Source: Escherichia phage AV112
Reading direction: 5' to 3' (one strand)
Length of the DNA stretch: 64,000 nucleotides
Sequence record: OR352942.1
Shown: positions 1,204 through 20,074 of the stretch, piece by piece
How positions within the stretch are numbered: position 1 is the stretch's first letter
Layout: every line of letters starts with the position of its first letter
Translations under genes and position numbers: made by a program
The notes under the pieces: model-generated
The model's database searches: none
Seen by the model: the letters and a program-made list of their open reading frames with translations, nothing else
What the model was told of the DNA's origin: nothing

Positions 1204-2892
1204 TTATGAAACAGTCATTACCGTAAATCGTCCAACTTTGCTCATTTGAAGATGTTGTCCATAACGTTGAGGGTCATGGTCTCGATGAGAGATAATGAAC
1301 ACATTAGTATTTTGTAAACTTCCAAGAATGGTATCTATAGCCTTAACAGCCTCAGAATCGACAGCACCATCAAAAACCTCATCAAGAATCAGAGTGTTGA
1401 TTTTAACACCAGAGACCTTTTCAGCAATATCTCGCCATGTAAACAACAATGCGATATCGATACGTGCCTTTTCACCTTGACTAAATGAAGCATAACTAAA
1501 ATCTTCACGACCACGTGATTTTATAGATTCATTGAATTCTTCGTCAATAGAAAACACGTAATCAGCTTCCATGATTTTAAGATAATAGTTAATCTGCTTG
1601 TTGAACAGAGGCACATATTTTTTAATGATAGCACCTTTAATACCAGAATCTTTTAACATATCTGTGATAATACCACGATGGTATTTTTCAAGAACGATAT
1701 CAGATTTTGTTTTAATGATTTTATCAAGTTCTTTTTGAAGCAAAGCTATCTCATCAGCATGGTCGATAAATTCCGCCGAGGCTTGTTCTATTGCAGCTTT
1801 AACTTTCTTAGCTTTATCAATAGTGGCAATCATTGCTTGTTTCTTGGTACGAATATCAGATGCAAGGTCCTGTTTAGTCTTAACATTAGCTCTATATTCG
1901 TCCACTAGGACACTCAGATTATCTCTGTGGCATGTAAGTTGCTCGAATGAGTGATTACATTCGTGAAGCTTATCGGTAATCTTAGAGACAATAGGATCAC
2001 CCTGGTGCAACTGCGATGCACAAGTAGGACATGTACCACCATCATGATACATCTTAATAACTTTGTTATATGAGTCGATTTTAGATTTAATCAAGAATGC
2101 TTCTTGTCCGATCTTGTTGAATGCCTCAGTAGGGTCTTCGTCAAGAACGATATTAAGTAGACGCTCATTAGCTTCTTCAATTTCTGCTTTTAATGAACGA
2201 GCTTCTTTGGCTAGGTCGTCATACATATTCTGTAGACGCGCTACATTATCACCAGATAATTTCTTTTGTCGTTCGATATTCTCGTTATAAATCTTAATTT
2301 GTTGGATAACACCATCTTTCTTGGCATCGAGAACTTGTCCCTGGGAATTAAGTTCTCGAACTTGAGACTTATTGATTTTATCCATTTCAGCGAGTGTGCC
2401 GACTTCTAAAAGGTCTTCGACAAGTTTTCTGCGAGCAGGGGTGCTAAGAGCCATGAAAGGGGTATACCCTGCCGTCCCAAGCACAACGATTTGTTTAAAA
2501 GACGCGTATGACATTCCGATGCTGCGTTCAAATTCTTCTTGGAAGTCACGACTGCTGGCAGATTCATCAAGACGAACACCGTCAACGGAGATTTCGAAAA
2601 TATTGGGCTTTTGGCCACGTTTAATGAAGTATTTTTTACCATCGAATTCCATCCAAAGCTCAACTAAGAGCTCTTTCTTGTTCGTGCTATTAATGATTTG
2701 CCCTTTCTTAACATCACGAAATGGTTTACCGAAAAGTCCGAAAGTAATGGCTTCTAACATCGTAGATTTGCCACCACCATTTTTACCAGTGATTAATGTC
2801 TTTTGGACTTTATCTAATTGGATATCGATAAAATTTTGCCCAACAGACATTATATTTTTATAACGAACACGATTTAATTTAAATGTTTTCAC
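1204..2892 (-). CDS. 46: gp46 recombination endonuclease subunit (Rad50/SbcC-like ATPase)
   Basis: 562 aa; Walker A GKNGGGKST near the N-terminus, long coiled-coil middle with CPTC zinc hook, C-terminal LILDEVFDG Walker B/signature region; same length class as T4 gp46. Confidence 0.92.
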   Translation of the reverse strand: MKTFKLNRVRYKNIMSVGQNFIDIQLDKVQKTLITGKNGGGKSTMLEAITFGLFGKPFRDVKKGQIINSTNKKELLVELWMEFDGKKYFIKRGQKPNIFEISVDGVRLDESASSRDFQEEFERSIGMSYASFKQIVVLGTAGYTPFMALSTPARRKLVEDLLEVGTLAEMDKINKSQVRELNSQGQVLDAKKDGVIQQIKIYNENIERQKKLSGDNVARLQNMYDDLAKEARSLKAEIEEANERLLNIVLDEDPTEAFNKIGQEAFLIKSKIDSYNKVIKMYHDGGTCPTCASQLHQGDPIVSKITDKLHECNHSFEQLTCHRDNLSVLVDEYRANVKTKQDLASDIRTKKQAMIATIDKAKKVKAAIEQASAEFIDHADEIALLQKELDKIIKTKSDIVLEKYHRGIITDMLKDSGIKGAIIKKYVPLFNKQINYYLKIMEADYVFSIDEEFNESIKSRGREDFSYASFSQGEKARIDIALLFTWRDIAEKVSGVKINTLILDEVFDGAVDSEAVKAIDTILGSLQNTNVFIISHRDHDPQRYGQHLQMSKVGRFTVMTVS

Positions 2893-3754
2893 TTAAATTT
2901 TTCCTCATGAATTCAGAAACTAAAGCCTGTAAAGAACTTTGTATAGGATATCCTAAATTGACTAAATTTTTAGAAAAAGTCACATATTTAGGTTTGTTCA
3001 TTTTAACCCATTCATCGTAAAGCATATCAAAATTTTCCCAATGATATCCTTTTCTTCTAGATTTCAAATGAGTGTCTCTAACTTTAGGATTTTTCCAACT
3101 GCGTGAAACTCCAGCCGATAATGATTCTCTATATTCGGCTGTTTTAGATATTTTACGACAAGCATCCAAATGTTTTTGTTTATTAATAGGGTCACTAAAC
3201 CACTTTTGGGTCATAATAGAGACGGTTTCTTTAAATTCCTTTGAACTTGTCATAATTCTGTGTTTCTTTAAATTTTCCGGATTTTTAAACCATGCTTTTA
3301 AAGCTTGACTAATCTTAATTCTATTATCCTGATTGGAATAGTATAATGTCATTTTTATAGAATTAACTTTACAAACATTTTCGAATTCTAAAGAATACGC
3401 CTCGGCTATATTATTTAGTTCATGCGTTGTACAATTTAAATTAAATCGCCCGGTATACATTCTTTGAAGCGCGTTAATCATCTTGTGGTTGCCAGTTTTT
3501 GCCAAAATGCTATGTGCAATAAAATGGTTATAATGACTTAAATGACACAAGTTCCATTTACATGTTTTAAAATCTGGAAAAATAGATTTTGGTAGTATAT
3601 GGTGAACCTGAGTCAGTCCTTTTACTTTATTAGTTGAATTAGTTTTTATAAAGTTTAAATACTCATCAAGTCCTTCCCACGAAGGGAAGGAGGTTTTAAG
3701 AATTTTATAAATTTGAGTTTCATAATCAGTCTTCGTCATTATACGCGTCCTCAA
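2879..3754 (-). CDS. free-standing HNH homing endonuclease (Mob-like)
   Basis: 291 aa; HNH-like motif QVHHILPKS...CHLSHYNHFIAH and repeated W-x-NP-x-K-H DNA-binding modules (KAWFKNPENLKKH, KWFSDPINKQKH, SWKNPKVRDTH); overlaps the start of gene 46 by 14 nt. Confidence 0.65.
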   Translation of the reverse strand: MRTRIMTKTDYETQIYKILKTSFPSWEGLDEYLNFIKTNSTNKVKGLTQVHHILPKSIFPDFKTCKWNLCHLSHYNHFIAHSILAKTGNHKMINALQRMYTGRFNLNCTTHELNNIAEAYSLEFENVCKVNSIKMTLYYSNQDNRIKISQALKAWFKNPENLKKHRIMTSSKEFKETVSIMTQKWFSDPINKQKHLDACRKISKTAEYRESLSAGVSRSWKNPKVRDTHLKSRRKGYHWENFDMLYDEWVKMNKPKYVTFSKNLVNLGYPIQSSLQALVSEFMRKNLSENI

Positions 3755-3983
3755 TACACGCTTCAGCCATTTTAAGAATAGAGCCAGGAGTATCGTTGTC
3801 CATTATATTAAAGCTAAATTCAACAGCCCAGTCGGTGCAGACATGAACTGCTTTAACTTCATTACCTTCAACGCGTAATGGCTCAATCCAATACTTGATA
3901 GTGTTCTCGAATCCATCATCATCTTTAACGTCCATTTCAACTTCAAGCCTGAGTCCAGCATTGTTAAATTCATCTAAAGTCAT
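3726..3983 (-). CDS. hypothetical acidic protein
   Basis: 85-aa ORF between the HNH gene and gene 47. Confidence 0.4.
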   Translation of the reverse strand: MTLDEFNNAGLRLEVEMDVKDDDGFENTIKYWIEPLRVEGNEVKAVHVCTDWAVEFSFNIMDNDTPGSILKMAEACIEDAYNDED

Positions 3984-4999
3984 TGTGTTGCCTCAATATA
4001 AAGTTCGTTGGAATATTTGACCAGCGCTTCTCTGTCTTCGTCTGAGATATCTGGAATCGCGTCAATATATTCTTTAATGATATCTTGAAGAGATTTAATC
4101 TCGATTTCCTGGTCGTCATCAGATTCAACACTGTTATCAACTTTAGAAACCATACGAAGAGAGTGAACTACTTTTTCAAGTTCAGATTCAAACTTAGTCA
4201 ACTCTGAATCAATTTCTGATACTATAACACGTACGGCTAGATTAGTATAATCAGAATAATTGATTTTGCCTTTAAACGGATAAGTGATTCGTCGATGCCA
4301 TGTTGTTTCGTTAGGAATAAATTCCATACGTTCAACATCAGTGTCAAATACCCAAAATCCGCGCGGGTCGTTCTCATCACCTGCAGTAAGGGTCCATGGT
4401 GTCCCAATATATTTGACGTTAGCAGCTTCAGAGATTGTGTGGAAGTGGCCGGACCAGACTTGTTTATAGGTCTTTAAGAAATCAGGTTCAAGCCCATGAG
4501 ACTTCATTCCTTTATAGAAATAAAAACCATTCAGTTCCCAGTGCCCAACACAATACGCTGCGGAAGAAGTCTTGATGTGCTCTAAGATTTCACCTGTATT
4601 TTCTTCGCACATCCATGGAACGATATCAATCAGACATCCGTCAAAATCTACAGTAGTTGGATGCTCGTAAATAGTAAAGTTTTCAAATTGAGTTAACAAT
4701 TCAGAAACAGTGTTAGGTGTTATTGTATTCTTAAACGCCATGTCATGGTTTCCTATCGTGACATGAACGTGAATGCCTGCTTTAGAAATCATATCAACGA
4801 TTTCACGATTGAATTCCATTGTACGATGTGTTATTGCTTTACGGACGTCAAACCAATCACCGTACTGAATCCAAGTTTTAATCCCATGTTTCTTAGAGTA
4901 TTCAATTGCTTGACGAATACCATCACGTTGAATATCTTGAACCCATGGGTCGTCTTGTTTGACTCCGATATGGAAGTCGCCTAAGTGCAAAATTTTCAT
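3980..4999 (-). CDS. 47: gp47 recombination endonuclease subunit (Mre11/SbcD-like phosphoesterase)
   Basis: 339 aa; N-terminal MKILHLGDFHIG and GNHD metallophosphatase motifs; same length as T4 gp47. Confidence 0.92.
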   Translation of the reverse strand: MKILHLGDFHIGVKQDDPWVQDIQRDGIRQAIEYSKKHGIKTWIQYGDWFDVRKAITHRTMEFNREIVDMISKAGIHVHVTIGNHDMAFKNTITPNTVSELLTQFENFTIYEHPTTVDFDGCLIDIVPWMCEENTGEILEHIKTSSAAYCVGHWELNGFYFYKGMKSHGLEPDFLKTYKQVWSGHFHTISEAANVKYIGTPWTLTAGDENDPRGFWVFDTDVERMEFIPNETTWHRRITYPFKGKINYSDYTNLAVRVIVSEIDSELTKFESELEKVVHSLRMVSKVDNSVESDDDQEIEIKSLQDIIKEYIDAIPDISDEDREALVKYSNELYIEATQ

Positions 5000-5040
5000 A
5001 TTATTTCCTCATTAGTTAATTCATTCTATCATCCGCTTAT

Positions 5041-5071
5041 AAAGCAAAAAAAGGAACTCCGAAGAGTTCCT
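5041..5071 (-). terminator. rho-independent terminator (8-bp stem, UUCG tetraloop, U-run)
   Basis: Plus strand aggaactc-cgaa-gagttcct preceded by aaagcaaaaa; on the minus strand this is a hairpin followed by UUUUUGCUUU. Confidence 0.55.
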
Positions 5072-5243
5072 ATCCACATAGTACACCATACAGAGGCTCA
5101 TTTGAACTTTTAAATCGAATGGGCTTGTATGTAATAGTTCCTTCGGCTTTAGCTTTATCATAAGACTCTTTAAAACGCCTCATTCTTTCTGCTTTGCCTT
5201 TACGGATTTTATCGAAATTTTCAGAGGTCAGGTCGTTCGTCAT
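5070..5243 (-). CDS. hypothetical small basic protein (57 aa, 47.1-like position)
   Basis: Manual translation MTNDLTSENFDKIRKGKAERMRRFKESYDKAKAEGTITYKPIRFKSSNEPLYGVLCG; GAGGTGA ribosome-binding site upstream; below the track length cutoff. Confidence 0.35.
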   Translation of the reverse strand: MTNDLTSENFDKIRKGKAERMRRFKESYDKAKAEGTITYKPIRFKSSNEPLYGVLCG

Positions 5244-5282
5244 GCATAATCACCTCTCAGAAAATACCTAAATCGATTTCTC

Positions 5283-5504
5283 TCATCGTTTCCACCATTT
5301 CTTAACTTGAAATGAGTCAACCCACACGAGTTGTTTTGGGTCGGCCCTTACAACAGGTGGACAAATTTCTGTAATAGAACTGTCGTGATATTCCTTTTCA
5401 GAGATTTTAACACAAAGAGGACCTCCCAATTTAAGGGTGAACCCTGCGTTCAGCTTAAGACGTTTAAACTTTGTTTGAACTAGCGCCATTAATGATGTCC
5501 TCAA
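5283..5504 (-). CDS. hypothetical protein
   Basis: 73-aa ORF in the interval where T4 carries alpha-glucosyltransferase. Confidence 0.35.
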   Translation of the reverse strand: MRTSLMALVQTKFKRLKLNAGFTLKLGGPLCVKISEKEYHDSSITEICPPVVRADPKQLVWVDSFQVKKWWKR

Positions 5505-5787
5505 TAGCCTGACGAGTAGTAACCCACTGGATTTTAATTAACTTGTCATTATATGGTTGTCGTAGAATATCCCGAGATTTCTTAATAGCATATTCGTAAG
5601 CTTCGAAGTTGTTTTGAATTGCTGCTTCTTGAGCATGAGCATAAAGACGGTTTAGTTCAAAACGATTCTTTTTAAGAATCTTTTCGGATTTTTTACGTGC
5701 TTCAGCTTCATTTTTCTTTTGGATTTCTTGTAGCATTTTAGCTACTGCATCTTCTGCTTCTTTATTTTCAATAATCTCGGTAGTCAT
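5464..5787 (-). CDS. hypothetical coiled-coil protein
   Basis: 107-aa ORF, Lys/Glu-rich. Confidence 0.4.
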   Translation of the reverse strand: MTTEIIENKEAEDAVAKMLQEIQKKNEAEARKKSEKILKKNRFELNRLYAHAQEAAIQNNFEAYEYAIKKSRDILRQPYNDKLIKIQWVTTRQAIEDIINGASSNKV

Positions 5788-5788
5788 A

Positions 5789-5998
5789 TTATCTCATTAA
5801 ATTAAAATAAAAACGTCCATCCTCTTCAATACGGAACTCATACTCAACCGGAGTCCCATTTATCGAAAATGACACGTCATGTGGGTTCAAAGGGTCGATG
5901 TCAAAATTAATTTTAAATTCACGACCCAACAGTTTTACCAAATAAGGGATTGCTTCGTCAAAAGGTTCTTCTAAGTAGTTAGAGATGTCAATTGTCAT
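5789..5998 (-). CDS. hypothetical protein (start uncertain)
   Basis: Track ORF 5789-6082 overlaps the 3' end of gene 55; an internal Met start would reduce the overlap. Confidence 0.3.
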
Positions 5999-6545
5999 CC
6001 TCATATAAAAAATCCAAACTAGGCGAATCGCTAACAACTTCCTTCTTTTCAGCCCCAGGAGCTTTATAAGCGGATTCTTCATAATGCGTCATTTTATCGT
6101 AGATGTCTTGAATAAACGTTTCATCTACCAACGCTACCATATCATCGTCATGACTGTCGTAGACGTTATGAACGAAGTAACTATATTTCTTTGCAACTTC
6201 CTTACGTTCTTTTTTGATACGTTGGACAAAAGCATTAAAACAAGCTCGAGTTATGTATGCATGTGGGTTATTGTACTTAGTTTCGTCGAAATTATGAAGT
6301 CCCTTAATAGAGGCTTCAATCCCATCTGCAATCATCTCCTGCTTCCAAGACTGGGTATATCCTGAAAAGTTGAAACGTTTGGACAGGCCTTCGGCGATAA
6401 GCATAATTGCTAAACCGATGGTATCATTCTGACGAATAATTTTGTTTGGGTCTTTATTATTTAAGAGCTCCTTTTTCCACTCGATTATAGCGGCGAGAAG
6501 CTCTTTATTATTCACATAGTTATTTTTAGGTTTTTGTTCAGTCAT
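5988..6545 (-). CDS. 55: gp55 late-transcription sigma factor
   Basis: 185 aa; near-identical over long stretches to T4 gp55 as recalled ([71 protein letters not shown]). Confidence 0.9.
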
Positions 6546-7260: not shown

Positions 7261-7275
7261 ATTTTCCTCGGTTAT

Positions 7276-7321
7276 TTTATTATCCAATGAGAGCATTATA
7301 CTCTGCTCTCAAGAGTTTGTA
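7276..7321 (-). promoter_or_regulatory. early promoter/stem-loop cassette, copy A of a 46-bp perfect direct repeat
   Basis: tttattatccaatgagagcattatactctgctctcaagagtttgta is identical to 37920-37965. Minus strand reads TTTACA-17 nt-TATAAT with inverted repeat GAGAGCA/TGCTCTC flanking the -10. Confidence 0.6.
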
Positions 7322-7326
7322 AATCG

Positions 7327-9319: not shown

Positions 9320-9790
9320 TTAATCATGTTTCCACACCCCGTCGGTATTTGTCCAAAGTCGCTGATTATCTGATCCTCGCCACAGTTTTTTGGTCGGAAG
9401 ATTTTTCTCATACTTCCCATCAATAATAACATCAACATATTTAAGCATTTCTAGTTGTTTAATATCTTCAAACTTATATCCTGTCCACAACCAAATGCTT
9501 TTATTGGGATAAAGTTTTTTTACTGTTTGAACAATGCAATGAACAACATCTTGGTTATCAGGATAGAGAGGGTCTCCTCCAGTTATAGTTAATCCTTCTA
9601 TATAATCATTATTCAAACATTCAATTAATTGTTCCAGCGTTTCACCGGTGAATGGGATACCATTTCTAGCGTTCCATGTTGATTTATTATAACACCCCTC
9701 GCATTTATGCAAACAACCTGTAACGAAAAGAACGACCCTGCAACCGGGGCCATTCACAAAATCGCAAGGATAAAATCTATCATAATTCAT
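9320..9790 (-). CDS. nrdG: anaerobic ribonucleotide reductase activase NrdG (radical SAM)
   Basis: 156 aa; CxxxCxxC-type cluster CLHKCEGC; same length as T4 NrdG. Confidence 0.9.
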   Translation of the reverse strand: MNYDRFYPCDFVNGPGCRVVLFVTGCLHKCEGCYNKSTWNARNGIPFTGETLEQLIECLNNDYIEGLTITGGDPLYPDNQDVVHCIVQTVKKLYPNKSIWLWTGYKFEDIKQLEMLKYVDVIIDGKYEKNLPTKKLWRGSDNQRLWTNTDGVWKHD

Positions 9791-11604
9791 TGGTGTTTAA
9801 CCCTATGCATGATTTCTTTATTTTTGCCGAGATTAAATCCGCGTTCGTTCGGATTTCCAAGATAACCGCATGTTCTTCTTATTGTGTTCATCTTTTTAGG
9901 ATCAGTTTCTCCGCAAACTGAACAAACAAATCCGGTTTCAGTAGGAGTCATTTCATGAGTACTTCCACATGTAAAACATTTATCTACTGGCATATTAACA
10001 CCAAAATAATCTAAATGTTGTGCAGCATAATCCCATACAGCCTCAAGACCTTTTAGGTTATTTTTCATATCAGGAAGTTCAACATAAGAAATGTGACCAC
10101 CAGTCGCAATGAAATGATATGGCGCTTCACGAGAAATCTTTTCAAACGGAGTAATATTTTCTTCTACTGAAACATGGAAACTATTAGTGTACCAGCCTTT
10201 ATCAGTAACATCTTTTACACTTCCATATTTTTCTGTATCAAGTTTACAGAAGCGATAACAAAGGTTTTCAGCAGGAGTAGAATACAAGCTAAAAGCAAAA
10301 CCGGTTCTTTCAGTCCACTGCTTAAGACGAGCATTCATTTTAGTTAAAATTTCTTGCCCAATATCACGTCCGGCAAGAATATTCAATTCGTGAATACCAA
10401 TGTATCCTAAAGACACTGAACTTCTACCGTTTTTAAATAACTCAATTATATCGTCATCAGGTTTAAGACGAACCCCGAATGCACCTTCTTGGTAAAGAAT
10501 AGGAGCAACAGTAGCTTTAACTCCTTTTAAGGAACTAATTCTACACATCAAAGCTTCAAAACACAAATCCATTCGCTCATTGAACAATTCGATAAATTTC
10601 TGTTCATTGAACTGTGTTCCAATATAAGAATCTAACGCAATGCGAGGAAGATTCAGTGTTACAACACCGAGATTATTACGTCCATCAAGAATTTCATTAC
10701 CAGTCGAATCTTTCCATACGCTCAAGAAACTACGGCAACCCATTGGAGAAACAGGAATAGACGAACCAGTGATAGCTTTATTGTTCTTAACTGAAATAAT
10801 ATCAGGATACATTCTTTTGCTTGCGCATTCTAAAGCAAGCTGTTTAATATCATAGTTCGGGTCGTCTTTATAAAGATTAACACCCTCTTCAACGAACATA
10901 ACAAGTTTAGGGAAAATAGGAGTTATTCCATCACGACCAAGGCCTTTAATACGATTTTTCAGAATTGCTTTCTGAATCATTCGTTCAGTCCAGTCAGTTC
11001 CAGTACCAAATGTAATTGTTACAAAAGGCGTTTGTCCGTTTGAACTAAAGAGAGTATTTACTTCGTATTCATACGCTTGGAATGCATCATATACGTCTTT
11101 TTCTGTTTTAGATTGAGCATAATTCAACGCATCAGCGATTTGCCATTTTTCTGCATCTTCAATATGTTTTGCATAGGTGCGTTTAACATAAGGAGAAAGA
11201 ACTTTATCGACATTCGCAAATGTAGTTCCACCATACTGATGCGAAGCAACCTGTGCGGTAATTTGTGCCATAATTGCAGTAGCAACACCAATCGATTTAG
11301 GCGTTTCAATTTGAGCATTGCCTAATTTAAATCCATTCTCAAGCATTCCTTTTAAATCTACTAAACAGCAATTAGTAAAAGGCAATGATATACTGTAATC
11401 TAAATCATGAAAATGAATTAATCCAACATTATGTGCATTTACAATATGACTTGGAAGAATACGACAAGCGATATGTTTAGAAACAATACCGGCCATTAAA
11501 TCTCTTTTTGTTGGAAAGACACGAGAATCTTTGTTGGCGTTTTCGGTATTTAATTCTTTATCTTTATTTGAAATAAAATTTAAAACATCTTTCTCTAAAG
11601 ACAT
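9787..11604 (-). CDS. nrdD: anaerobic ribonucleoside-triphosphate reductase NrdD, uninterrupted
   Basis: 605 aa; C-terminal glycyl-radical motif RRTCGYLG and C-terminal Cys zinc ribbon; continuous ORF. Confidence 0.92.
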   Translation of the reverse strand: MSLEKDVLNFISNKDKELNTENANKDSRVFPTKRDLMAGIVSKHIACRILPSHIVNAHNVGLIHFHDLDYSISLPFTNCCLVDLKGMLENGFKLGNAQIETPKSIGVATAIMAQITAQVASHQYGGTTFANVDKVLSPYVKRTYAKHIEDAEKWQIADALNYAQSKTEKDVYDAFQAYEYEVNTLFSSNGQTPFVTITFGTGTDWTERMIQKAILKNRIKGLGRDGITPIFPKLVMFVEEGVNLYKDDPNYDIKQLALECASKRMYPDIISVKNNKAITGSSIPVSPMGCRSFLSVWKDSTGNEILDGRNNLGVVTLNLPRIALDSYIGTQFNEQKFIELFNERMDLCFEALMCRISSLKGVKATVAPILYQEGAFGVRLKPDDDIIELFKNGRSSVSLGYIGIHELNILAGRDIGQEILTKMNARLKQWTERTGFAFSLYSTPAENLCYRFCKLDTEKYGSVKDVTDKGWYTNSFHVSVEENITPFEKISREAPYHFIATGGHISYVELPDMKNNLKGLEAVWDYAAQHLDYFGVNMPVDKCFTCGSTHEMTPTETGFVCSVCGETDPKKMNTIRRTCGYLGNPNERGFNLGKNKEIMHRVKHQ

Positions 11605-12416
11605 AATTCTAATTTATCCTTTTGAAATTCTTCGTCTAAATATGGGTTCCAACCCATTTTAAACCTTTTGATGAAATTATCAATTCTAAATTTCGGTAAG
11701 TTTAAATCCGCAAAAATAGATGATTTACTTTTAAAATCTGGACCTAAATAATCATATAAAATTTCTGCGTATTTTAACCATAATATACAAGTACCAGATT
11801 TAATTGCGTTCGGAGTTTTCCAAGGTTTTACACCATACATCGGATTTCCACTTCCTTTATGCCTGATAGAAGATGAAATTCCAATTTTAATTTTAGCTTC
11901 CTTTGTATGCGAAAATCCACGATGCGGATTTTCTTTCCAGTATTTTTTAGAAGCTTCTGATATTTTCTTTCTGGCTAAATTAGTATGATGCTTTCCATAA
12001 AATCCATGATTTTTGCCTTTATTACGATTTCTTTTAATCATGGTTATTGATTGCTTTTCTCTAGTTTCTTTAGAAGGAGAAATACCATATGTCGTAAATT
12101 TGCCATCAGCATATGCTAAATTAAAATACTCTTTATTCCATACATCTTTTTCTATATTCTTTTGAAATTCAGCTTCAATGCTAGTTATTTGTTCATCTCC
12201 GACTAATTGAAAATATAATATTTCAACTTTCGGCGTTTCTTTCAATAAGGCTTTTTGAAATTCGGAAGATGACGAAGACGAATAATAAAATTTACCATTT
12301 TTATCAATAATATTCGTTCCATCAAAAGTGCAATTGGTTTTACTTCCAATGTAATAATATGGTGGGGTTTTAGCATTAATTCTATTAATAAATGATAGTT
12401 TATATACTACATTCAT
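11595..12416 (-). CDS. free-standing GIY-YIG homing endonuclease (Seg-like)
   Basis: 273 aa; N-terminal VVYKL...PYYYIGSK GIY-YIG-like motif; NUMOD3-like repeats HTNLARKKISEA and HTKEAKIKIGISS; sits between gene 49 and nrdD, stop overlapping the nrdD start. Confidence 0.65.
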   Translation of the reverse strand: MNVVYKLSFINRINAKTPPYYYIGSKTNCTFDGTNIIDKNGKFYYSSSSSSEFQKALLKETPKVEILYFQLVGDEQITSIEAEFQKNIEKDVWNKEYFNLAYADGKFTTYGISPSKETREKQSITMIKRNRNKGKNHGFYGKHHTNLARKKISEASKKYWKENPHRGFSHTKEAKIKIGISSSIRHKGSGNPMYGVKPWKTPNAIKSGTCILWLKYAEILYDYLGPDFKSKSSIFADLNLPKFRIDNFIKRFKMGWNPYLDEEFQKDKLELCL

Positions 12417-13647: not shown

Positions 13648-13983
13648 TTAACCCCGGAGTTTATTGAGCTCTTCATAATCAATCCAGGATTCTAGCCCTG
13701 ACGGCAGGTCACATTCAATGTTCCACAGAAGCTCTTCGATGGCTTGTAGGCGATTATATTCTTCAACAGTAATAGTAACCATTGTTTCAGGCTTTTTAAC
13801 CATCATGTCATTCATCAGAATGTACAGGTCTTCACAAACAGCCGGGTCGTCCCATGTCCATATTTCAGCATCTCGAACTAATGAAGTCGGAATCGAATTT
13901 AAAACTTCAAGCTTAGTAGGAGCGTCAGGGCCGAGAAGAGTTGCTACAAATTTATACGCTCTGGCGAAATCAATATCATTCAT
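13648..13983 (-). CDS. hypothetical acidic protein
   Basis: 111-aa ORF. Confidence 0.4.
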   Translation of the reverse strand: MNDIDFARAYKFVATLLGPDAPTKLEVLNSIPTSLVRDAEIWTWDDPAVCEDLYILMNDMMVKKPETMVTITVEEYNRLQAIEELLWNIECDLPSGLESWIDYEELNKLRG

Positions 13984-14243
13984 TTAAAATATTCTCGCAG
14001 TTGGTCGAATCCACCAATGTGACTTCCGTCAGGAGCAAACACTTGAGGCATAGTCAATCCGACTTGTGATTCACGTCCAAGCTTAACCAGAAGCTCAGCA
14101 ATTTTCTCATCATCAAAAACACCTTTTTCTGGCATAACATTAATGAATTCGAATGGCTGTTTCTTAACAGTCAGTAATCGTTTCGCATTATCGCAATAAA
14201 TGCATTTATGAATAGTAGAGTCATACCCGTACACTTTAAACAT
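13980..14243 (-). CDS. nrdC: NrdC thioredoxin/glutaredoxin
   Basis: From the internal Met: MFKVYGYDSTIHKCIYCDNAKRLL...GGFDQLREYFK, CIYC redox motif; near-identical to T4 NrdC as recalled. Confidence 0.9.
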   Translation of the reverse strand: MFKVYGYDSTIHKCIYCDNAKRLLTVKKQPFEFINVMPEKGVFDDEKIAELLVKLGRESQVGLTMPQVFAPDGSHIGGFDQLREYFK

Positions 14244-14649
14244 TATTTTTCCTTTCATCGATTAAATATGCAACGCCAAATACAATACATGTAATAAAAC
14301 CTGTGATACAGATAGAAACCAACAACACTGTACCAAAGAACCAAATCAAGTTATCTTTAGTAGTTTGTTTGATATCCATCTCACGAATTTCTATAGCTAT
14401 TGTATCACCTTTATTCAGAAGCGTATAAAACGACGGTGATACATGCCTGTCAAAAACTCGACCTTGTTCATCTTTATAAACTGCAATAAATTCCAGTTTA
14501 GAATATTTTCCTGTAGATTGACCTGAAATTAATTCCACTACCTCCACAGGAATTACTTTAGTTTCCATGTAAGTATTCTGGCTGTTCCAAATGAATGGAA
14601 TGATGGCAAAAACTAAAGCTACAATAAAACAACGAAGGCTATATCTCAT
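14236..14649 (-). CDS. membrane protein
   Basis: 137 aa; hydrophobic N- and C-terminal segments. Confidence 0.45.
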   Translation of the reverse strand: MRYSLRCFIVALVFAIIPFIWNSQNTYMETKVIPVEVVELISGQSTGKYSKLEFIAVYKDEQGRVFDRHVSPSFYTLLNKGDTIAIEIREMDIKQTTKDNLIWFFGTVLLVSICITGFITCIVFGVAYLIDERKNNV

Positions 14650-14954
14650 TATAATGTTCTCTCAAATTTGTGGAAGCATTTACGGCATTTCAATTTCAAG
14701 TTATCAGTGGTCCAGTTAACCAGTTGGACTTGGATAGTTCCACATTCCGGGCATGGATGTTTTGCTGCCGATTTGGCAGCATTTTCACGTCGTTCAACCA
14801 TTTTCATTATTTCGTTCCATGCCGGAGGAACGAACTCTTCTTCACCGTGGATTTTATCTCGCTGAACAAATTCAATCTTTGAACTATCGTCAATAAACTT
14901 AACCAAGCTGTGATTAGTGCTCATGTCAATATCCTCTAAAAGACGTAGTTTCAT
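14649..14954 (-). CDS. zinc-ribbon protein
   Basis: 101 aa; CPECG ... CRKC paired-Cys motifs. Confidence 0.45.
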   Translation of the reverse strand: MKLRLLEDIDMSTNHSLVKFIDDSSKIEFVQRDKIHGEEEFVPPAWNEIMKMVERRENAAKSAAKHPCPECGTIQVQLVNWTTDNLKLKCRKCFHKFERTL

Positions 14955-15904
14955 TATAAAACCTCAATGGCATTTCGTAAACCATCCGCTTTTGCATTCA
15001 GAGCTTTTAATGATTTAGTTTGTTCTGCAATCTGGGCTTCAACTTCTTTCAGACGAGATTTGAGGTATTCGCGTTCTTCTCTTAAGTTATCAACTTTTTC
15101 TGCTTTAGGCTCTTTAATAGGCTTAGGTTTATACGTATTAGGGTTCTTCAGTTTAATTAGAATGCGTGAACTGTACAGCATTGAACCATTATCTTCGGTT
15201 TCGTCATACATTTCCACTACGTCCATCATCTCCACCATCGTGCAGAGTTTATAAGACAACGAACGAATAGTTTTGTTGTGCTTATTAATTTCTTTAGAGT
15301 TCATGGTGCCTAGATTACGCGAGTAGTAATAAGGAACCTGGATATCAACTGACAATGATGCGTTACCATTGCCAGTTGGTTTGAATACTGCAGTAACCCA
15401 ATCTTTAACATGAACTTTATTTGTACGGCCATCACCGCCAGTGAATAATTTACGAGAATGTTTAAAAAGCATATTCACTTGGTTATTGAATTCACAAGCA
15501 AATTTATCAGCAAATTTAGTTTCAGGAATGGTAGATAACCAATCAGCTAAATGAGTCTTTTTAACATCGTTAATAATAGTAAATTCAACCAAATCAGTTT
15601 TAGATGTCACAGATTTAATAAAGCTCGGCTTCATAAAGTTTTTAATGTTATCGCGAGCTACAGTAGAAGATAATAAACGAGAACGTTTGAACCATTGAAG
15701 CAGTGTCCCTAATGAATGAGAATACGCATTCTGAGTATCTTTACAGATATGATTTTCTTGGCCTGTGTATGTACCAAAATCGCGAAGAATACCGCTTACT
15801 ACAACTCGGTGTGGAACATCAAATCCTAATGAACCAGAAGCACGTTGGGCATGAACGTTAGCGATAAGACCTGCAAAATAATCAATGTAATGTGAACGTG
15901 TCAT
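14954..15904 (-). CDS. hypothetical early protein with C-terminal coiled coil
   Basis: 316 aa; heptad-like tail EEREYLKSRLKEVEAQIAEQTKSLKALNAKADGLRNAIEVL. Confidence 0.5.
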   Translation of the reverse strand: MTRSHYIDYFAGLIANVHAQRASGSLGFDVPHRVVVSGILRDFGTYTGQENHICKDTQNAYSHSLGTLLQWFKRSRLLSSTVARDNIKNFMKPSFIKSVTSKTDLVEFTIINDVKKTHLADWLSTIPETKFADKFACEFNNQVNMLFKHSRKLFTGGDGRTNKVHVKDWVTAVFKPTGNGNASLSVDIQVPYYYSRNLGTMNSKEINKHNKTIRSLSYKLCTMVEMMDVVEMYDETEDNGSMLYSSRILIKLKNPNTYKPKPIKEPKAEKVDNLREEREYLKSRLKEVEAQIAEQTKSLKALNAKADGLRNAIEVL

Positions 15905-15932
15905 AATATTTTCCTCTCGTTAAGATAGAAAG

Positions 15933-15961
15933 ATTATACTCCAACCGTCCTTGGTTGTAAA
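15933..15961 (-). promoter_or_regulatory. sigma70-like early promoter with spacer stem-loop
   Basis: Minus strand TTTACA-17 nt-TATAAT; spacer contains CAACC/GGTTG inverted repeat. Confidence 0.55.
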
Positions 15962-15966
15962 CTGAT

Positions 15967-16899
15967 TTATGATTTTAATGCATTCATTGCGTTAAAAAGT
16001 TTAGAGTACTGCAACTGGAGCTTGGTAACTACTTGTTGAGCATCACGAAGCTTAGCTTGTGCTTTGTCAAGTTCAACAGACAGTTGATCCACAGTGCCTT
16101 TGATTTGATTATAATAGTAATCTTCGGCAGGAAGAAGGCCGTTAGAGATTTCCAGTTTAGTCGTCGGTGTGCCGTTAAACATAACAGGTTGTGCTGAAGC
16201 TGCATTAATCTTACCGATAGTCGGGGCGACAATAATTGACGCTTCGAACGTTGCATTTTCCTTTTTAAGATTTTGATAGTATTCAGAGTCTTTGTGCCAC
16301 CATGGCGCAGGAACCTTTTTACCAATAGATACACGAGCCTGGATAGCGATATGGCCCTTATTCTTGATAACGTCGATAATATTAAGCTCACGAGAATAAA
16401 TTGCTTTAATCTGGTGAATATTATCACCTAACACTTCCAACGCTTGGTGGAATACACGAGCAACGTTATCATTCTTAGGTTTATACGTAAGAGTGAACTC
16501 GTTCTCACTGATAACCATGATTTCTAACTTATCGTAAGTATATTTCAAATGTTTCATGTTAATTGCTTGAGGACGAATACGAGAAGCAATGGCCATCAGA
16601 TTGTTAAGGTTATTCCGGAACTGCTTAGCGAAATATTGTCCTTCACCACCAATACAAAAATTACGAAGTTTCTGTTTGGCTAATAAACGGCTGAACTCAC
16701 CGTTTTTAATGAACTCTTTAACGGGTGTGTTAGTAACGCATTCAAATTGAGTAAACTTACGAGAAGTAATCCCATAATATGAACAGATTTCCTCAATCTC
16801 TTCAGGAGTCTTTACAGGCATACGGATAGGATTAGGACCTGGGGTATATGCGTTCGAGGTAAATTCTTTGATAAGTTCTCTACGTGTAATAGAAGCCAT
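15967..16899 (-). CDS. hypothetical early protein with C-terminal coiled coil
   Basis: 310 aa; C-terminal LSVELDKAQAKLRDAQQVVTKLQLQYSKLFNAMNALKS. Confidence 0.5.
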   Translation of the reverse strand: MASITRRELIKEFTSNAYTPGPNPIRMPVKTPEEIEEICSYYGITSRKFTQFECVTNTPVKEFIKNGEFSRLLAKQKLRNFCIGGEGQYFAKQFRNNLNNLMAIASRIRPQAINMKHLKYTYDKLEIMVISENEFTLTYKPKNDNVARVFHQALEVLGDNIHQIKAIYSRELNIIDVIKNKGHIAIQARVSIGKKVPAPWWHKDSEYYQNLKKENATFEASIIVAPTIGKINAASAQPVMFNGTPTTKLEISNGLLPAEDYYYNQIKGTVDQLSVELDKAQAKLRDAQQVVTKLQLQYSKLFNAMNALKS

Positions 16900-16925
16900 T
16901 TTATATTCCTCATGTTGAAAAATTT

Positions 16926-16954
16926 ATTATACTCCAACCATCCTTGGTTGTACA
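16926..16954 (-). promoter_or_regulatory. sigma70-like early promoter, same cassette type as 15933-15961
   Basis: Minus strand TGTACA-17 nt-TATAAT; spacer shares ccaaccatccttggttg with the neighbouring cassette. Confidence 0.5.
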
Positions 16955-17950
16955 TCATTCCTTAAGAAGTTTTACTACTTGAATAAGATTAGCTCGTTCT
17001 GTTTTATTTTTACCGTTTAAGCCTGCTAATCGTGAGATTTCATCGTCAGTCTGTTGAATAGTTACATTAAGTTCGTTAATCAAAGCTTCAAAGTATTTGA
17101 TTTGCTCAGCATGTTTTGATTCAAATTTCTGAACCGGAATAACGTCTTGGTTTAGTTCATCAATAAGGTCTTTAAGAGCATCTTCTTGATTGATATCATA
17201 TTCAACTTCTTTTATTTCTTCAACGAGCTCGTCTTTATATCTAACGTCTTTTAGTCCTGGTGCTGGTCCTGAAATCTCTTCTTTAAGAGTACAAACATAT
17301 CCAATACGGTATCCAATGCCGTCTCGCTTGATATCAACTTCGTCAATAAATCCACAATGTTTAAGACCAGAGCCGATTAAGTCAAAATATCCTTGACGAC
17401 GTCCTTCAAACGTTACACGAACTACTAAGACAGTTTTACCTGCAACCTTTTGAAGCTCACATTTATAAAAGTTTGTTGAACCTGAATAACGTGGATGAGT
17501 TTTAAAGTTCATCTGACGATCTAGGCCCATTTGTAAGCGTGCTGATACGGCCATAAAACGTGTTTGGTTCTCGTTAAGATGAGCAACAATCCATTTCAAA
17601 GGCATTTTACACTGTTCACGACCGAACAAATCAGTACGTCCTAGATTACGCAGGATGTTGTTAGAGTTAATCATCGACAGAACATTAAGTTTATTCAGCG
17701 CGCTGAAGATTCCATCAGCCATTGATTTTCCGTAACCTTTACACGCTTTAATAAGCGCTCGCGGTAGATTAGCATAGATTTCAGACGGCATATGAAAATC
17801 AAATTTACTAGTCAGTAATTGATGAACTTGGATAGCAATTTGCTCATAATTAAGTGCTCTGCGATCATTATGATCTTTAAACCACACTTTAATCTGTGAA
17901 GCACATAAACCGTTAATTTCATGTTTTACCGCATCAGATGTAATGCTCAT
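16955..17950 (-). CDS. hypothetical early protein with C-terminal coiled coil
   Basis: 331 aa; acidic coiled-coil tail. Confidence 0.5.
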   Translation of the reverse strand: MSITSDAVKHEINGLCASQIKVWFKDHNDRRALNYEQIAIQVHQLLTSKFDFHMPSEIYANLPRALIKACKGYGKSMADGIFSALNKLNVLSMINSNNILRNLGRTDLFGREQCKMPLKWIVAHLNENQTRFMAVSARLQMGLDRQMNFKTHPRYSGSTNFYKCELQKVAGKTVLVVRVTFEGRRQGYFDLIGSGLKHCGFIDEVDIKRDGIGYRIGYVCTLKEEISGPAPGLKDVRYKDELVEEIKEVEYDINQEDALKDLIDELNQDVIPVQKFESKHAEQIKYFEALINELNVTIQQTDDEISRLAGLNGKNKTERANLIQVVKLLKE

Positions 17951-18012
17951 ATCTATTTCCTCAGATTGAATTGGAACTCAAAACCATTATAACCCGTCCT
18001 TGGGTAAAGCGT

Positions 18013-18540
18013 TTATGCGTGAACCGTCTTTAAACGTTCTTCAAATTTCCGAAGAGTACTAATACGTTCTGCTTTCTGTTTTGTATAGTTTGCAATACGT
18101 TCTGAAGTGAGAGCGTATCGTTCGTTTACTGTTTCTTTCATGAAGTCAGGGATTTCACGAGAAGCTTTAATTTCATCAAACTTATCGAGTACTGCCTGGT
18201 CTTCAGCGATTAAATTTTCGTACATCTCGATATCTTTCTTGATGAAGTCGATATCTTCCTGGGTTACTTTGGATAAACGAGATGCTTTATCCTTTTTGTA
18301 TTGCTCGTTAGTTTCACGAGACCAGAATAATGTACGTTTTTTGTTAGTGTTTTTGTAGACTTCCACAATTCCAACTGAATCGATGATAGCAATCCAATTC
18401 CAGCGAGATTTGAAAATCTGACCTCCGTCCACGGTAATCTCGTTACCATAAGCAACATCATTAAAGAACTTGCTTTGTGCTTCAGATTTAAATTTACCGT
18501 CGTTATAATTTACCAGGTTGAAAATATCTTTAGCGTTCAT
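18013..18540 (-). CDS. hypothetical protein
   Basis: 175-aa ORF. Confidence 0.45.
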   Translation of the reverse strand: MNAKDIFNLVNYNDGKFKSEAQSKFFNDVAYGNEITVDGGQIFKSRWNWIAIIDSVGIVEVYKNTNKKRTLFWSRETNEQYKKDKASRLSKVTQEDIDFIKKDIEMYENLIAEDQAVLDKFDEIKASREIPDFMKETVNERYALTSERIANYTKQKAERISTLRKFEERLKTVHA

Positions 18541-18564
18541 GTTTTACCTCCAGTAGTTGATAGG

Positions 18565-18597
18565 TCTATAATAACACAACCATAGACCTTGTAAACA
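18565..18597 (-). promoter_or_regulatory. early promoter with inverted repeat around the -10
   Basis: Minus strand GTTTACA...TGTGTTATTATAG; plus-strand taggtctat...atagacct inverted repeat. Confidence 0.5.
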
Positions 18598-18598
18598 A

Positions 18599-18886
18599 CT
18601 AAAAGAAACTTTTTTCGGTATTTTTTCCACTGAACCAAACCGACTTCGGGACTTTCTGTAATTTTTCGGATTTAAGTTTCTCTTCCTGTTCTTTCTTATA
18701 TGCATCCTTGTCGTACTGGAACAATTCTAAGGCATTCTTTTGTAGACGGTCTAAGGTAATTAAGGCTTTAGTTTTTCCTTTCAAGGAAGAGTCCTGGCGA
18801 ACCTCCTCGCTATATTGCATCGTAGAACTAACCATACGATGAGCATACAGTTCGACTGCGGCTTTAATTTTTTGCATAAAATCCAT
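18599..18886 (-). CDS. hypothetical protein
   Basis: 95-aa ORF. Confidence 0.4.
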   Translation of the reverse strand: MDFMQKIKAAVELYAHRMVSSTMQYSEEVRQDSSLKGKTKALITLDRLQKNALELFQYDKDAYKKEQEEKLKSEKLQKVPKSVWFSGKNTEKSFF

Positions 18887-19024
18887 AACATATCCTCTTT
18901 GATTTGTACACCATTATTTTTAAATATTTCTATGCCCTCAGTAGGTTCCTGGTGTCCTTCTTTGAGGTAAGCCATATGATTATTCATCTTTATGGCTTTT
19001 GTTACCTCAGAACTTCCTATAAGC

Positions 19025-20026
19025 TTATTTCAGTAAAGTAACTTCAGAGATTTCCTCCCAACCATCTTTATCAGTTGAAATAAAATCTGCTACATAAAGA
19101 GCCGTACGTAATGATACATTGCGAAGACGAGATACATTAGCCTTCATCCAGGACAATGCTTTATACGTTTCTGCATCTGTCAGACCACGTTTCTGCATCA
19201 TGTCAGTAGATAATATTACATCTTCAACTCGAACCATAATCTCTTCATTAGAGTGTACTCCAAGGTCGAGATACACTGAACGAGATACTAAAGCTTGAAG
19301 GTGTGGGGCAAGTTTCGAACCGCGTTCTAACTCTTTATCGATATCAACGTTTGTAATGAAAACGATAGTACCTTCAAACTCAAATTCTTTATCAATACCC
19401 TTATCATCGAGATAAGATGACGCAGTGCTCCAACAAACTTTGCGTTTATCTCCAGTATCTAATGCTGCTTTAAGAAGGTTCAAGATGTCCATATCTGAGA
19501 ATACGTCAACGTCGTCGATTAAGAGAACGCTGTCTGCATCACGGTTGAGCCAAAGTTGTTCGTAAAGGCCAATACCGGAGATTTTACCATTAATGCTTTT
19601 GTATTTGATGAAACCATTATCATTAGCGTTATTAAGTGCTTTATCCAGAGAATACGTCTTACCAATACCGGCTGCACCTGAAATAATGAGTGAACGAATT
19701 TTGCCATCGATAATGCCATTCGTCATCATGTTCATTACTTTAAAGCGTTTGTTGATACGAGTTTTCATATCTTCAGTGCTTTCAACAACTGCAACTGGTG
19801 ACGTCTCAACTCCTTCCATTACGATGTCTGATTTGAAGACCCATACTCCACGTTCAGACCCATCAATCATAACGAAAATTTTACCATCACCTAAGTGGGA
19901 ACATTCAGGATTAAGCTTTGCTGGGAACCATGTCTTTGTGGCAACATAAGAACCAGAGATTTCGTTATTACGATAAATACCTTTTTTGATTTGAACGTTG
20001 AACATTTTATTCTCCAATTTACTCAT
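19025..20026 (-). CDS. P-loop NTPase (AAA-like ATPase)
   Basis: 333 aa; Walker A ISGAAGIGKTYS and Walker B VLLIDDVD. Confidence 0.6.
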   Translation of the reverse strand: MSKLENKMFNVQIKKGIYRNNEISGSYVATKTWFPAKLNPECSHLGDGKIFVMIDGSERGVWVFKSDIVMEGVETSPVAVVESTEDMKTRINKRFKVMNMMTNGIIDGKIRSLIISGAAGIGKTYSLDKALNNANDNGFIKYKSINGKISGIGLYEQLWLNRDADSVLLIDDVDVFSDMDILNLLKAALDTGDKRKVCWSTASSYLDDKGIDKEFEFEGTIVFITNVDIDKELERGSKLAPHLQALVSRSVYLDLGVHSNEEIMVRVEDVILSTDMMQKRGLTDAETYKALSWMKANVSRLRNVSLRTALYVADFISTDKDGWEEISEVTLLK

Positions 20027-20039
20027 TTCGTTTCGATAG

Positions 20040-20072
20040 GTCTATAATAACATGTTTAAAGCAAAAGTAAAC
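20040..20072 (-). promoter_or_regulatory. early promoter (GTTTAC, 17-nt spacer, extended -10 TGT-TATTAT)
   Basis: RC reads GTTTAC-TTTTGCTTTAAACATGT-TATTAT, about 40 nt upstream of the ATPase start. Confidence 0.55.
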
Positions 20073-20074
20073 AA

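Follow-up and report, generated by a model that had tools for sequence, protein, structure and literature searches.

Which sugar, if any, does a T-even phage place on its cytosines when the gene for alpha-glucosyltransferase (a-gt) is not where T4 has it? The question is raised by a stretch of 64,000 nucleotides from Escherichia phage AV112 (OR352942.1), referred to here as the window, in which genes 47 and 55 are spaced by 988 bp; the RB69 spacing is 987 bp, while T6 and T4 have 2315 and 3152 bp, respectively. The initial annotation had placed the a-gt gene of T4, which encodes roughly 400 aa, between genes 47 and 55 and had described the corresponding interval of the window as shorter than 1 kb, devoid of a-gt and filled with ORFs of about 57-107 aa. 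We can confirm this view in all its parts. The T4 order is 47, 47.1, a-gt, mobB, a-gt.2, a-gt.3, a-gt.4, a-gt.5, 55, tblastn with T4 and T6 a-gt gives no match in the window at E <= 1e-3, and the interval contains only four small conserved ORFs of 57, 68 (73 from an upstream TTG), 107 and 69 aa (97 from an ATG inside gene 55), which are homologues of T4 a-gt.2, a-gt.3, a-gt.4 and a-gt.5. The interval and its borders are composed as follows.

3980..4999, minus strand: gene 47 (lower border), SbcD/Mre11-like recombination nuclease subunit of 339 aa, 100% identical to RB69 gp47 and 75.8% to T4 gp47.
5000..5069, minus strand: spacer of 70 bp with the hairpin tail, a Mot-box-like middle-promoter match and the gene 47 ribosome-binding site.
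5070..5243, minus strand: a-gt.2 homologue of 57 aa (DUF5486, E = 4.5e-28; phrog_2140), 98% identical to RB69 and 75% to T4.
5283..5489, minus strand: a-gt.3 homologue of 68 aa from the ATG at 5489 (phrog_1648, E = 2.3e-34), 95.6% identical to RB69 and 72% to T4.
5464..5787, minus strand: a-gt.4 homologue of 107 aa (DUF2654, E = 1e-27; phrog_951), 100% identical to RB69 and 58% to T4.
5789..5998, minus strand: a-gt.5 homologue of 69 aa (DUF5491, E = 3.3e-13; phrog_1169), 98.6% identical to RB69 and 47% to T4.
5988..6545, minus strand: gene 55 (upper border), late-transcription sigma factor of 185 aa, 99.5% identical to RB69 gp55 and 90.7% to T4 gp55.

The matches to DUF5486, DUF2654 and DUF5491 all exceed the Pfam cut-offs, the first 11 nt of the a-gt.5 homologue are shared with the end of gene 55 and, going by profile match and position upstream of gene 47, the order of a-gt.2 to a-gt.5 is identical in the window, T4, T6 and RB69. 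These four genes owe their names to map position and not to any part in sugar transfer.

Over all 64 kb, the window is 99.986% identical to positions 103943-167942 of Escherichia phage AV113 (OR352943, Mosigvirus), from which it differs in one 16-nt patch (at 33475-33488), and all results reported below for regions outside the window rest on that record (167,942 bp). Its annotation lists gene 47 as a recombination-related endonuclease, and the a-gt.3 homologue is missing from its GenBank feature table. In the RB69 reference, a Sanger sequence, the genes are ordered as in the window (47, a-gt.2, a-gt.3, a-gt.4, a-gt.5, 55) and the interval proteins are 95.6-100% identical, the AV113 interval being 1 bp longer. 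The a-gt locus of T4 and T6 (PDB 1XV5/1Y6F) shares the flanking genes 47 and 55 and the four small ORFs at 47-75% identity, yet has an extra 2.2 kb in T4 (47.1, a-gt, mobB) or 1.3 kb in T6 (a-gt; order 47, a-gt, a-gt.2 to a-gt.5, 55) that are absent here. Judged by these sequence comparisons, the window phage is an RB69-like T-even relative of the genus Mosigvirus.

RB69 is without a-gt, b-gt and ba-gt and contains arabinose (PMC6024577); its DNA carries mono- and di-arabinosyl-5-hydroxycytosine and its gp48 has been shown experimentally to be a 5hodCMP synthase (PMC13326640). Outside the window, AV113 has all genes of the RB69-type set, with 97.7-99.7% identity and at the two loci that they occupy in RB69, while gene 1 is the only component of the cytosine-modification pathway inside the window.

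AV113 71049..72149: homologue of RB69 gp3 (ORF003c/gp3 type), the putative second arabinosyltransferase, 98.6% identical.
AV113: homologue of RB69 gp45, 97.8% identical.
AV113 92938..93837: homologue of RB69 gp46 and gp47 in one 299-aa ORF, 99% identical to each.
AV113 93837..94553: homologue of RB69 gp48, 5-hydroxy-dCMP synthase in place of gene 42, 99.2% identical.
AV113: homologue of RB69 gp50, 99.2% identical.
AV113: homologue of RB69 gp51, phosphatase with an EcbF/BcbF capsule-type phosphatase match, 97.7% identical.
AV113 96434..98119: homologue of RB69 gp52 and gp53 in one 561-aa ORF, bifunctional kinase/uridylyltransferase (NTP_transferase and a kinase-like C-terminus), 99.5-99.7% identical.
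AV113 98301..98936: homologue of RB69 gp55, arabinose-5-phosphate isomerase (SIS/KdsD-like), 99.1% identical.
Window 42948..43682, minus strand: gene 1, deoxynucleoside monophosphate kinase, 95% identical to RB69 gp159 and 61% to T4 gp1.

Two of these products bear on the sugar transfer itself. The gp3 homologue is encoded between rIIA.1 and the topoisomerase large subunit, which is the RB69-type position (rIIA-gene 39), and the gp46:47 ORF, the candidate for the first (base-proximal) arabinosyltransferase, has a GT-B fold and lies inside the sugar-gene cluster. An AlphaFold model of the gp3 homologue, built from five aligned sequences, was of low quality (pLDDT 58), so that its Foldseek matches to distant folds were not relied on. 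The same Foldseek search nevertheless led to the solved structure 9iqz, and comparison of the sequences bore this match out: the protein is near-identical to that in the glycosyltransferase-UDP structure 9iqz/9ir0 from phage HY126 (E = 1.9e-252). Hence, one putative transferase has a GT-B fold and the other is near-identical to a solved glycosyltransferase structure. Pfam, NCBIfam and PHROGs assigned the two candidates to no glycosyltransferase family and only to PHROGs of unknown function, indicating that profile libraries miss these enzymes. A sequence-profile search of the PDB with the gp46:47 family alignment gave nothing significant, and hhalign comparisons of the gp3 and gp46:47 families with T4 a-gt and with each other were negative. 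The relationship of the putative arabinosyltransferases to a-gt is visible only at the level of the fold.

The base to be modified also seems to differ from that of T4. The initial annotation had taken hydroxymethylcytosine (hmC) for granted, a premise that is most likely wrong: the gene-42 position is occupied by the gp48 homologue, which is the sole relative found in AV113 with T4 gp42 and is 24.8% identical to it as against 99.2% to RB69 gp48. This protein matches Thymidylat_synt (E = 1.9e-15) and is near-identical to the HY126 enzyme in PDB 9iqc/9ir2 (E = 6.4e-162). The hmC that gp42 provides as a substrate base in T4 and T6 is therefore probably not made here.

Taking chemistry and enzyme activities from the literature on RB69, HY126, NP and Bas46, a pathway may be envisaged in which the flavin-dependent homologue of thymidylate synthase would convert dCMP to 5-hydroxy-dCMP and the gene 1 kinase would phosphorylate the latter before its incorporation into DNA; conversion of 5hodCMP to 5hodCDP has been shown for RB69 gp159 only (PMC13326640). 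UDP-arabinofuranose would come from the phage-encoded arabinose-5-phosphate isomerase, bifunctional kinase/uridylyltransferase and phosphatase, and two GT-B-fold transferases would attach two arabinose units, one after the other, starting at the 5-hydroxyl. Mosigvirus NP contains 5-ara-dC and 5-ara-ara-dC, and both transferase genes are found there at the corresponding pair of loci (PMC13390438). PMC13326640 also cites work that attributes arabinofuranosyl-5-hydroxycytosine to the Afh pathway of HY126 (He et al., Nat Chem Biol) and to Aat of Bas46 (Mahler et al., Cell Host Microbe 2025). AV113 has AfhE-like and AfhF-like genes. Single DLP3 transferases showed no activity (Lee et al.), and the roles of the two transferases, including the first transfer by a gp46:47-type enzyme, are still proposals.

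Our preferred explanation, which we hold with high confidence, is that the window stems from a Mosigvirus phage without the a-gt cassette and with arabinosyl-5-hydroxycytosine instead of glucosyl-hmC. AV113 DNA is predicted from the gene content to carry both the mono- and the di-arabinosyl form. Mosigvirus phages would never carry an a-gt cassette in the 47-55 interval; the group is already known to be without T4 glucosyltransferases because its DNA cytosines receive arabinose on 5-hydroxycytosine through genes located elsewhere in the genome. With the RB69-type arabinosylation genes in place, the earlier suggestion of another sugar turns out to be right. To our minds, the result assigns a new isolate to a described system rather than revealing new biology, and both arabinosylation and the lack of a-gt have already been published for RB69 and other Mosigviruses (2018-2026).

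It could be argued that this isolate has lost the function of its modification genes, leaving its DNA without sugar, be it as bare 5-hydroxycytosine, hmC or plain cytosine. Krischviruses TB34 and SAP do differ in modification despite being more than 99% identical (PMC13390438), and the modification of AV113 is read from its genes. We nonetheless consider this improbable. All pathway ORFs are intact, full length and as close to RB69 as stated above, the two that the old RB69 reference splits owing to reported sequencing errors (gp46/47 and gp52/53) are single ORFs in AV113, and two independent Mosigviruses, RB69 and NP, have been shown to be fully arabinosylated.

Even less probable is a scenario where a-gt has been relocated within the genome, as considered in the initial annotation, and alpha-glucosyl-hmC is still made. 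T4-like hyperplastic regions do shuffle genes (PMC4122927) and two GT-B-fold proteins are indeed encoded at other loci of AV113, but tblastn with T4 and T6 a-gt over all 167,942 bp found no homologue (best E = 1.4), and the two proteins in question share 98.6-99% identity with the arabinosyltransferase candidates of RB69, which makes them very distant, RB69-type putative arabinosyltransferases and not a-gt orthologues. Among 50,697 phage records, a-gt matches at E <= 1e-3 were obtained in 657; the AV113 genome itself gave no such match, and no Mosigvirus was among the 40 matches listed of the 657. Moreover, AV113 is without a gene-42 orthologue to make hmC. Within the window, sequence searches with the large ORFs that have no assigned function uncovered no hidden glycosyltransferase. 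For most of these ORFs there is an orthologue in T4 (nrdC.3 to nrdC.11 and others), and one of 318 aa (33868..34824), the homologue of RB69ORF134c with DUF7275/DUF7277, gave no glycosyltransferase match at the sequence level. Such searches can miss a cryptic glycosyltransferase, as is evident from the hhalign control that fails to link the gp46:47 family to T4 a-gt.

Glucosylation of hmC in beta linkage only, or by the T2/T6-type second transferase, is similarly hard to reconcile with our data. Although most glucosylating phages have just one of the two transferases (PMC13216743), which would favour the beta-only option of the initial annotation, tblastn over the whole AV113 genome with T4 b-gt (best E = 3.7) and with T6 ggt, the T2/T6-type second glucosyltransferase (best E = 2.4), detected a homologue of neither, and the uvsX-DNA polymerase region, which harbours b-gt and gene 42 in T4, holds the arabinosylation cluster in AV113. 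This option is therefore wrong as far as we can judge, and we see hardly any room for it.

The sugar and the base together decide which host defences the phage meets, and the relevance for restriction evasion that had been assigned to this locus is well founded. With arabinosylated 5-hydroxycytosine, DNA is protected from type II restriction, from type I CRISPR-Cas and from Brig1, a glycosylase specific for alpha-glucosyl groups (PMC13216743), while GmrSD-family enzymes such as BrxU still cut DNA with this modification (PMC13390438). Since AV113 is a candidate for the biocontrol of ESBL E. coli (PMC10844046), its membership in the arabinosylating group helps to predict host range as well as how its DNA will behave when cloned or sequenced.

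As for the short interval itself, an assembly or deletion artefact of a single genome can be practically dismissed: the AV113 record does carry a misc_feature 'Dupl_ends_SPAdes', which means that the ends of the assembly were manually handled, but the 991-bp interval is covered to at least 80% in one colinear piece by 147 phage records (about 150 at 95% identity or more), the RB69 interval of 987 bp has the same four genes, and the flanking hairpin and promoter are intact. Junction comparison among AV113, RB69, T6 and T4 shows that the spacer at 5000..5069 is the exact site where T4 has mobB, a-gt and 47.1 and T6 has a-gt. Two elements mark this site.

5052..5071, minus strand: intrinsic-terminator-like hairpin with an 8-bp stem, UUCG loop and U7, from terminator scan and RNA fold.
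5023..5046, minus strand: Mot-box-like match TGCTTTA-N11-TAGAAT to the pattern TGCTTYA-N10-13-TANNNT, for which the window has 16 matches as compared to 2.5 expected.

An Rfam search of the interval gave no RNA family match. The hairpin directly follows the a-gt.2 stop codon, and in T4 and T6 a hairpin is found at the same position with the same kind of Mot-box module behind it. These two phages have a second hairpin-promoter module after a-gt, which is absent here. The predicted module is thus present in two copies that bracket a-gt in T4 and T6 and in one copy at the same spot in the window, a difference that fits gain or loss of a cassette. The modules of T4 and T6 have their architecture in common, the sequence similarity between the two copies being limited.

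We know of no published PeSL/PmSL example at the a-gt junction. Composite terminator-promoter cassettes of this kind are known from T4-like phages (Arbiol 2010, PMC2839356; Comeau 2014, PMC4122927), and the arrangement at our indel boundary has the sequence features of a PmSL-type terminator/middle promoter, with the promoter being a predicted one: immediately behind a stem-loop come a TGCTT Mot box and, at suitable spacing, a -10 box, all at the exact site of a gene-cassette indel. Recombination at the a-gt modules, by comparison, is something we infer, and the a-gt indel may have arisen in this way between repeated hairpin-plus-middle-promoter modules. Extending this, we tentatively propose a model to which we give real but clearly less than even credence. 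T-even a-gt would be a self-contained cassette between PmSL-like modules, gained or lost by recombination between them, and the RB69-like lineage would represent the 'empty site', where gene 47 is driven by the one module present. In this model a-gt.2 to a-gt.5 would be independent of DNA glucosylation because a phage without hmC or glucosyl-DNA retains them at 47-75% identity. If true, a whole DNA-modification enzyme would be gained or lost via regulatory repeats.

Two further genes of AV113 deserve mention. A member of the DAHP-synthase family was considered as a KdsA-like partner of the arabinose-5-phosphate isomerase and rejected, as it is clearly an aroFGH-type enzyme. In comparison to RB69, AV113 also has an extra homing-endonuclease-like ORF between genes 46 and 46.2, where it replaces 46.1.

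The 988 bp between genes 47 and 55 hold no gene for alpha-glucosyltransferase (a-gt), as the initial annotation had noted, and the T4 map that it gave, with a-gt between these two genes, is correct. Four genes of 57-107 aa, all on the minus strand, make up the interval:

3980..4999, minus strand, gene 47
5070..5243, minus strand, a-gt.2: 57 aa, DUF5486; 98% identity to RB69, 75% to T4
5283..5489, minus strand, a-gt.3: 68 aa, phrog_1648; 95.6% to RB69, 72% to T4
5464..5787, minus strand, a-gt.4: 107 aa, DUF2654; 100% to RB69, 58% to T4
5789..5998, minus strand, a-gt.5: 69 aa, DUF5491; 98.6% to RB69, 47% to T4
5988..6545, minus strand, gene 55

The 'a-gt.N' names reflect mere adjacency to a-gt in T4, and all four proteins are without assigned function. 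RB69 has the same layout with a spacing of 987 bp, whereas the spacing is 2315 bp in T6 (order 47, a-gt, a-gt.2 to a-gt.5, 55) and 3152 bp in T4 (47, 47.1, a-gt of 400 aa, mobB, a-gt.2, a-gt.3, a-gt.4, a-gt.5, 55). Since the interval is covered colinearly over at least 80% in 147 phage records (at least 95% identity in about 150), its compactness is a lineage trait.

For the genome beyond the window we used the record of Escherichia phage AV113 (OR352943.1) as a proxy, and every statement on sequence outside the window rests on it. AV113 is a Mosigvirus (Tevenvirinae) of 167,942 bp from Danish wastewater. It is 100% identical to window positions 1200-8000 by megablast, and its record positions 103943-167942 align with the whole 64-kb window at 99.986% identity. 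It was published within a collection of phages of ESBL-E. coli, without DNA modification analysis (PMC10844046). Over the 64 kb, window and AV113 differ only in a 16-nt patch (window 33475-33488). It affects the RB69ORF132c homologue: in place of its first codons in AV113, ATGAATAGTTCTAAAGTG, the window has a duplicate of the Shine-Dalgarno/start module, CGAGGAAAATAATATG, which creates a tandem 15-nt repeat; the N-terminus reads MFNSQ in the window versus MNSSKVFNSQ in AV113. Possible explanations are a natural variant, a sibling isolate and a sequence edit. The a-gt.3 homologue (phrog_1648, E = 2e-34) is unannotated in the AV113 GenBank record, which leaves the stretch from the a-gt.2 to the a-gt.4 homologue empty.

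Beta-only glucosylation, one explanation put forward initially, finds no support in AV113, as neither T4 beta-glucosyltransferase (b-gt) nor the second T6 glucosyltransferase (ggt) has a tblastn match in its full sequence, which was joined from four annotated stretches. Nor has a-gt moved elsewhere: with T4 and T6 a-gt as further queries, no homologue of any of the four was found in AV113 (best E-values 1.4 to 3.7), and 47.1 and mobB were likewise not found. In line with this, homologues of a-gt, b-gt and ba-gt were not found in RB69 by Thomas et al. 2018 (PMC6024577). By tblastn, 657 records of the phage collection have a-gt homologues, the carriers among the matches listed being T4-like coliphages, Klebsiella phages and a few others.

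The remaining suggestion, another sugar, does appear to be borne out by an RB69-type arabinose gene set in AV113. AV113 has the full RB69 set of cytosine-modification genes (gp numbers denote RB69 proteins of the arabinosyl-5-hydroxycytosine pathway) outside the window, and one pathway component lies inside it:

AV113 record 71049..72149, between rIIA.1 and gene 39: gp3 homologue (98.6%), second arabinosyltransferase candidate
AV113 cluster from uvsX to polymerase: homologues of gp45 (97.8%, kinase-like), gp50 (99.2%, Peptidase_U32-like) and gp51 (97.7%, phosphatase)
AV113 record 92938..93837: gp46 + gp47 homologue, one 299-aa ORF (99%), first arabinosyltransferase candidate
AV113 record 93837..94553: gp48 homologue (99.2%), 5-hydroxy-dCMP synthase by RB69 homology
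AV113 record 96434..98119: gp52 + gp53 homologue, one 561-aa ORF (99.5-99.7%), nucleotidyltransferase / kinase
AV113 record 98301..98936: gp55 homologue (99.1%), KdsD-like isomerase
Window 42948..43682: gene-1 dNMP kinase, 95% identical to RB69 gp159

Pfam and NCBIfam matches fit the proposed pathway roles. The genes that the RB69 reference splits into ORF046c/047c and ORF052c/053c are each one intact ORF in AV113 (299 and 561 aa), which supports the published view that the RB69 splits are sequencing errors. The initial assumption that the base is hydroxymethylcytosine (hmC) most likely does not hold: there is no gene-42 orthologue, and the sole AV113 match to T4 gp42 (dCMP hydroxymethylase) is the gp48 homologue at 24.8% identity. 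Read from its gene content, AV113 would thus arabinosylate 5-hydroxycytosine, not hmC. Separately, AV113 record 34730..35722 encodes a full-length aroFGH-type 3-deoxy-7-phosphoheptulonate (DAHP) synthase (NCBIfam TIGR00034, E = 6e-128) adjoining dCMP deaminase; the synthase gene is an auxiliary metabolic gene and is not obviously connected with the arabinose pathway.

AV113 has two arabinosyltransferase candidates at other loci and, by tblastn, no a-gt orthologue. Profile libraries do not recognise the two candidates, and no sequence method ties them to a-gt. For the 366-aa candidate, five homologues were found and the predicted model was poor; a fold search with this model exposed the solved 'phage HY126 glycosyltransferase', in structures both with UDP and free of it (9iqz, 9ir0), to which the candidate is near-identical by sequence search (E = 1.9e-252, one difference in the displayed alignment). 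The gp48 homologue matches the solved HY126 structures 9iqc and 9ir2. Distant structural relatives of a-gt are encoded elsewhere in the genome, but they are not a-gt orthologues. Large window ORFs without known function, most with T4 orthologues, gave no glycosyltransferase family match by sequence methods, which could miss a cryptic transferase. With two candidate transferases in place and no more than two arabinoses in RB69 DNA, there is no need for a third. The largest Mosigvirus-specific ORF of no known function in the window (33868..34824, minus strand; 318 aa, DUF7277 + DUF7275, phrog_2141) shares 95% identity with RB69ORF134c and lacks a homologue in the T4 region searched.

The absence of a-gt and the alternative modification are already known and explained in the literature for the genus Mosigvirus. 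In RB69 DNA, Thomas et al. 2018 (PMC6024577) detected arabinose, for which they suggested ORF003c as the transferase. Lee et al. 2026 (PMC13326640) identified mono- and di-arabinosylated 5-hydroxycytosine in RB69 DNA, ether-linked without a methylene bridge, and showed that gp48 forms 5-hydroxy-dCMP using O2 and flavin and that gp159 phosphorylates it; sequential transfer from UDP-arabinofuranose by gp46:47, then gp3, is their proposal, as are the transferase roles of both. DNA of Mosigvirus NP contains 5-ara-dC and 5-ara-ara-dC, and the same Durham-collection paper (PMC13390438) places two transferase genes at exactly the two AV113 loci. Papers citing the work (PMC13326640, PMC13216743) also mention AfhE and AfhF enzymology for UDP-arabinose steps and a deletion phenotype for the Bas46 transferase Aat.

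By its sequence, the interval is transcribed leftward with genes 55, a-gt.5, a-gt.4, a-gt.3 and a-gt.2. Directly on the a-gt.2 stop codon sits a hairpin (5071..5052; 8-bp stem, UUCG, then U7; terminator scan, RNA fold), and 3' of it follow TGCTTTA-N11-TAGAAT (5046..5023), a ribosome-binding site and the gene 47 start. This motif probably serves gene 47 as a MotA-dependent middle promoter; the Mot-box pattern has 16 matches in the window versus 2.5 expected (0/100 shuffles reach 16). While AV113 and RB69 show a single module at this junction, T4 and T6 carry the same hairpin and Mot-box module 3' of a-gt.2, driving a-gt (mobB in T4), and a second of the same architecture after a-gt and before 47.1 and 47. 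On this view a-gt would be a cassette that brings its own promoter and terminator and is flanked by two similar regulatory modules, and it may have been either gained or lost. PeSL/PmSL elements, proposed mediators of indels in T4-like genomes, have the same arrangement (PMC4122927). An element of about 46 nt, TTTACAAACTCTTGAGAGCAGAGTATAATGCTCTCATTGGATAATAA on the minus strand, recurs almost unchanged at 7275..7324, 37910..37957 and AV113 record 65916..65965; with a TTTACA -35 box and TATAAT inside the loop of a GAGAGCA/TGCTCTC stem, it resembles the promoter-early stem-loop (PeSL) elements published for T4-like phages.

Between genes 46 and 46.2 lies a 291-aa ORF (2879..3754, minus strand) with hits to homing-endonuclease PHROGs (phrog_655, E = 7e-32); its identity is 45% to T6ORF054 and 29% to T4 MobD. 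No homologue of 46.1 (DUF5487), a gene of T4 and RB69, is detectable here. For many other Mosigviruses the alignment covers just 88% of window 1200-8000, which suggests that this element is polymorphic within the genus. T4 nrdD carries the I-TevII intron, whereas nrdD here (9787..11604, minus strand) is one uninterrupted 605-aa ORF. Directly upstream, next to gene 49, is a 273-aa homing-endonuclease-like ORF (11595..12416, minus strand), for which the part of T4 that was searched (30-80 kb) has no counterpart. Finally, about ten consecutive ORFs at ~13980..21700 (AV113 record 117922..125643) are named 'thioredoxin' in the GenBank record; at most one is nrdC, the rest being homologues of T4 nrdC.3 to nrdC.11, and with Pfam assigning DUF7235, an AAA/HTH protein and an RlaP-type nucleotidyltransferase among them, the naming looks like annotation carry-over.
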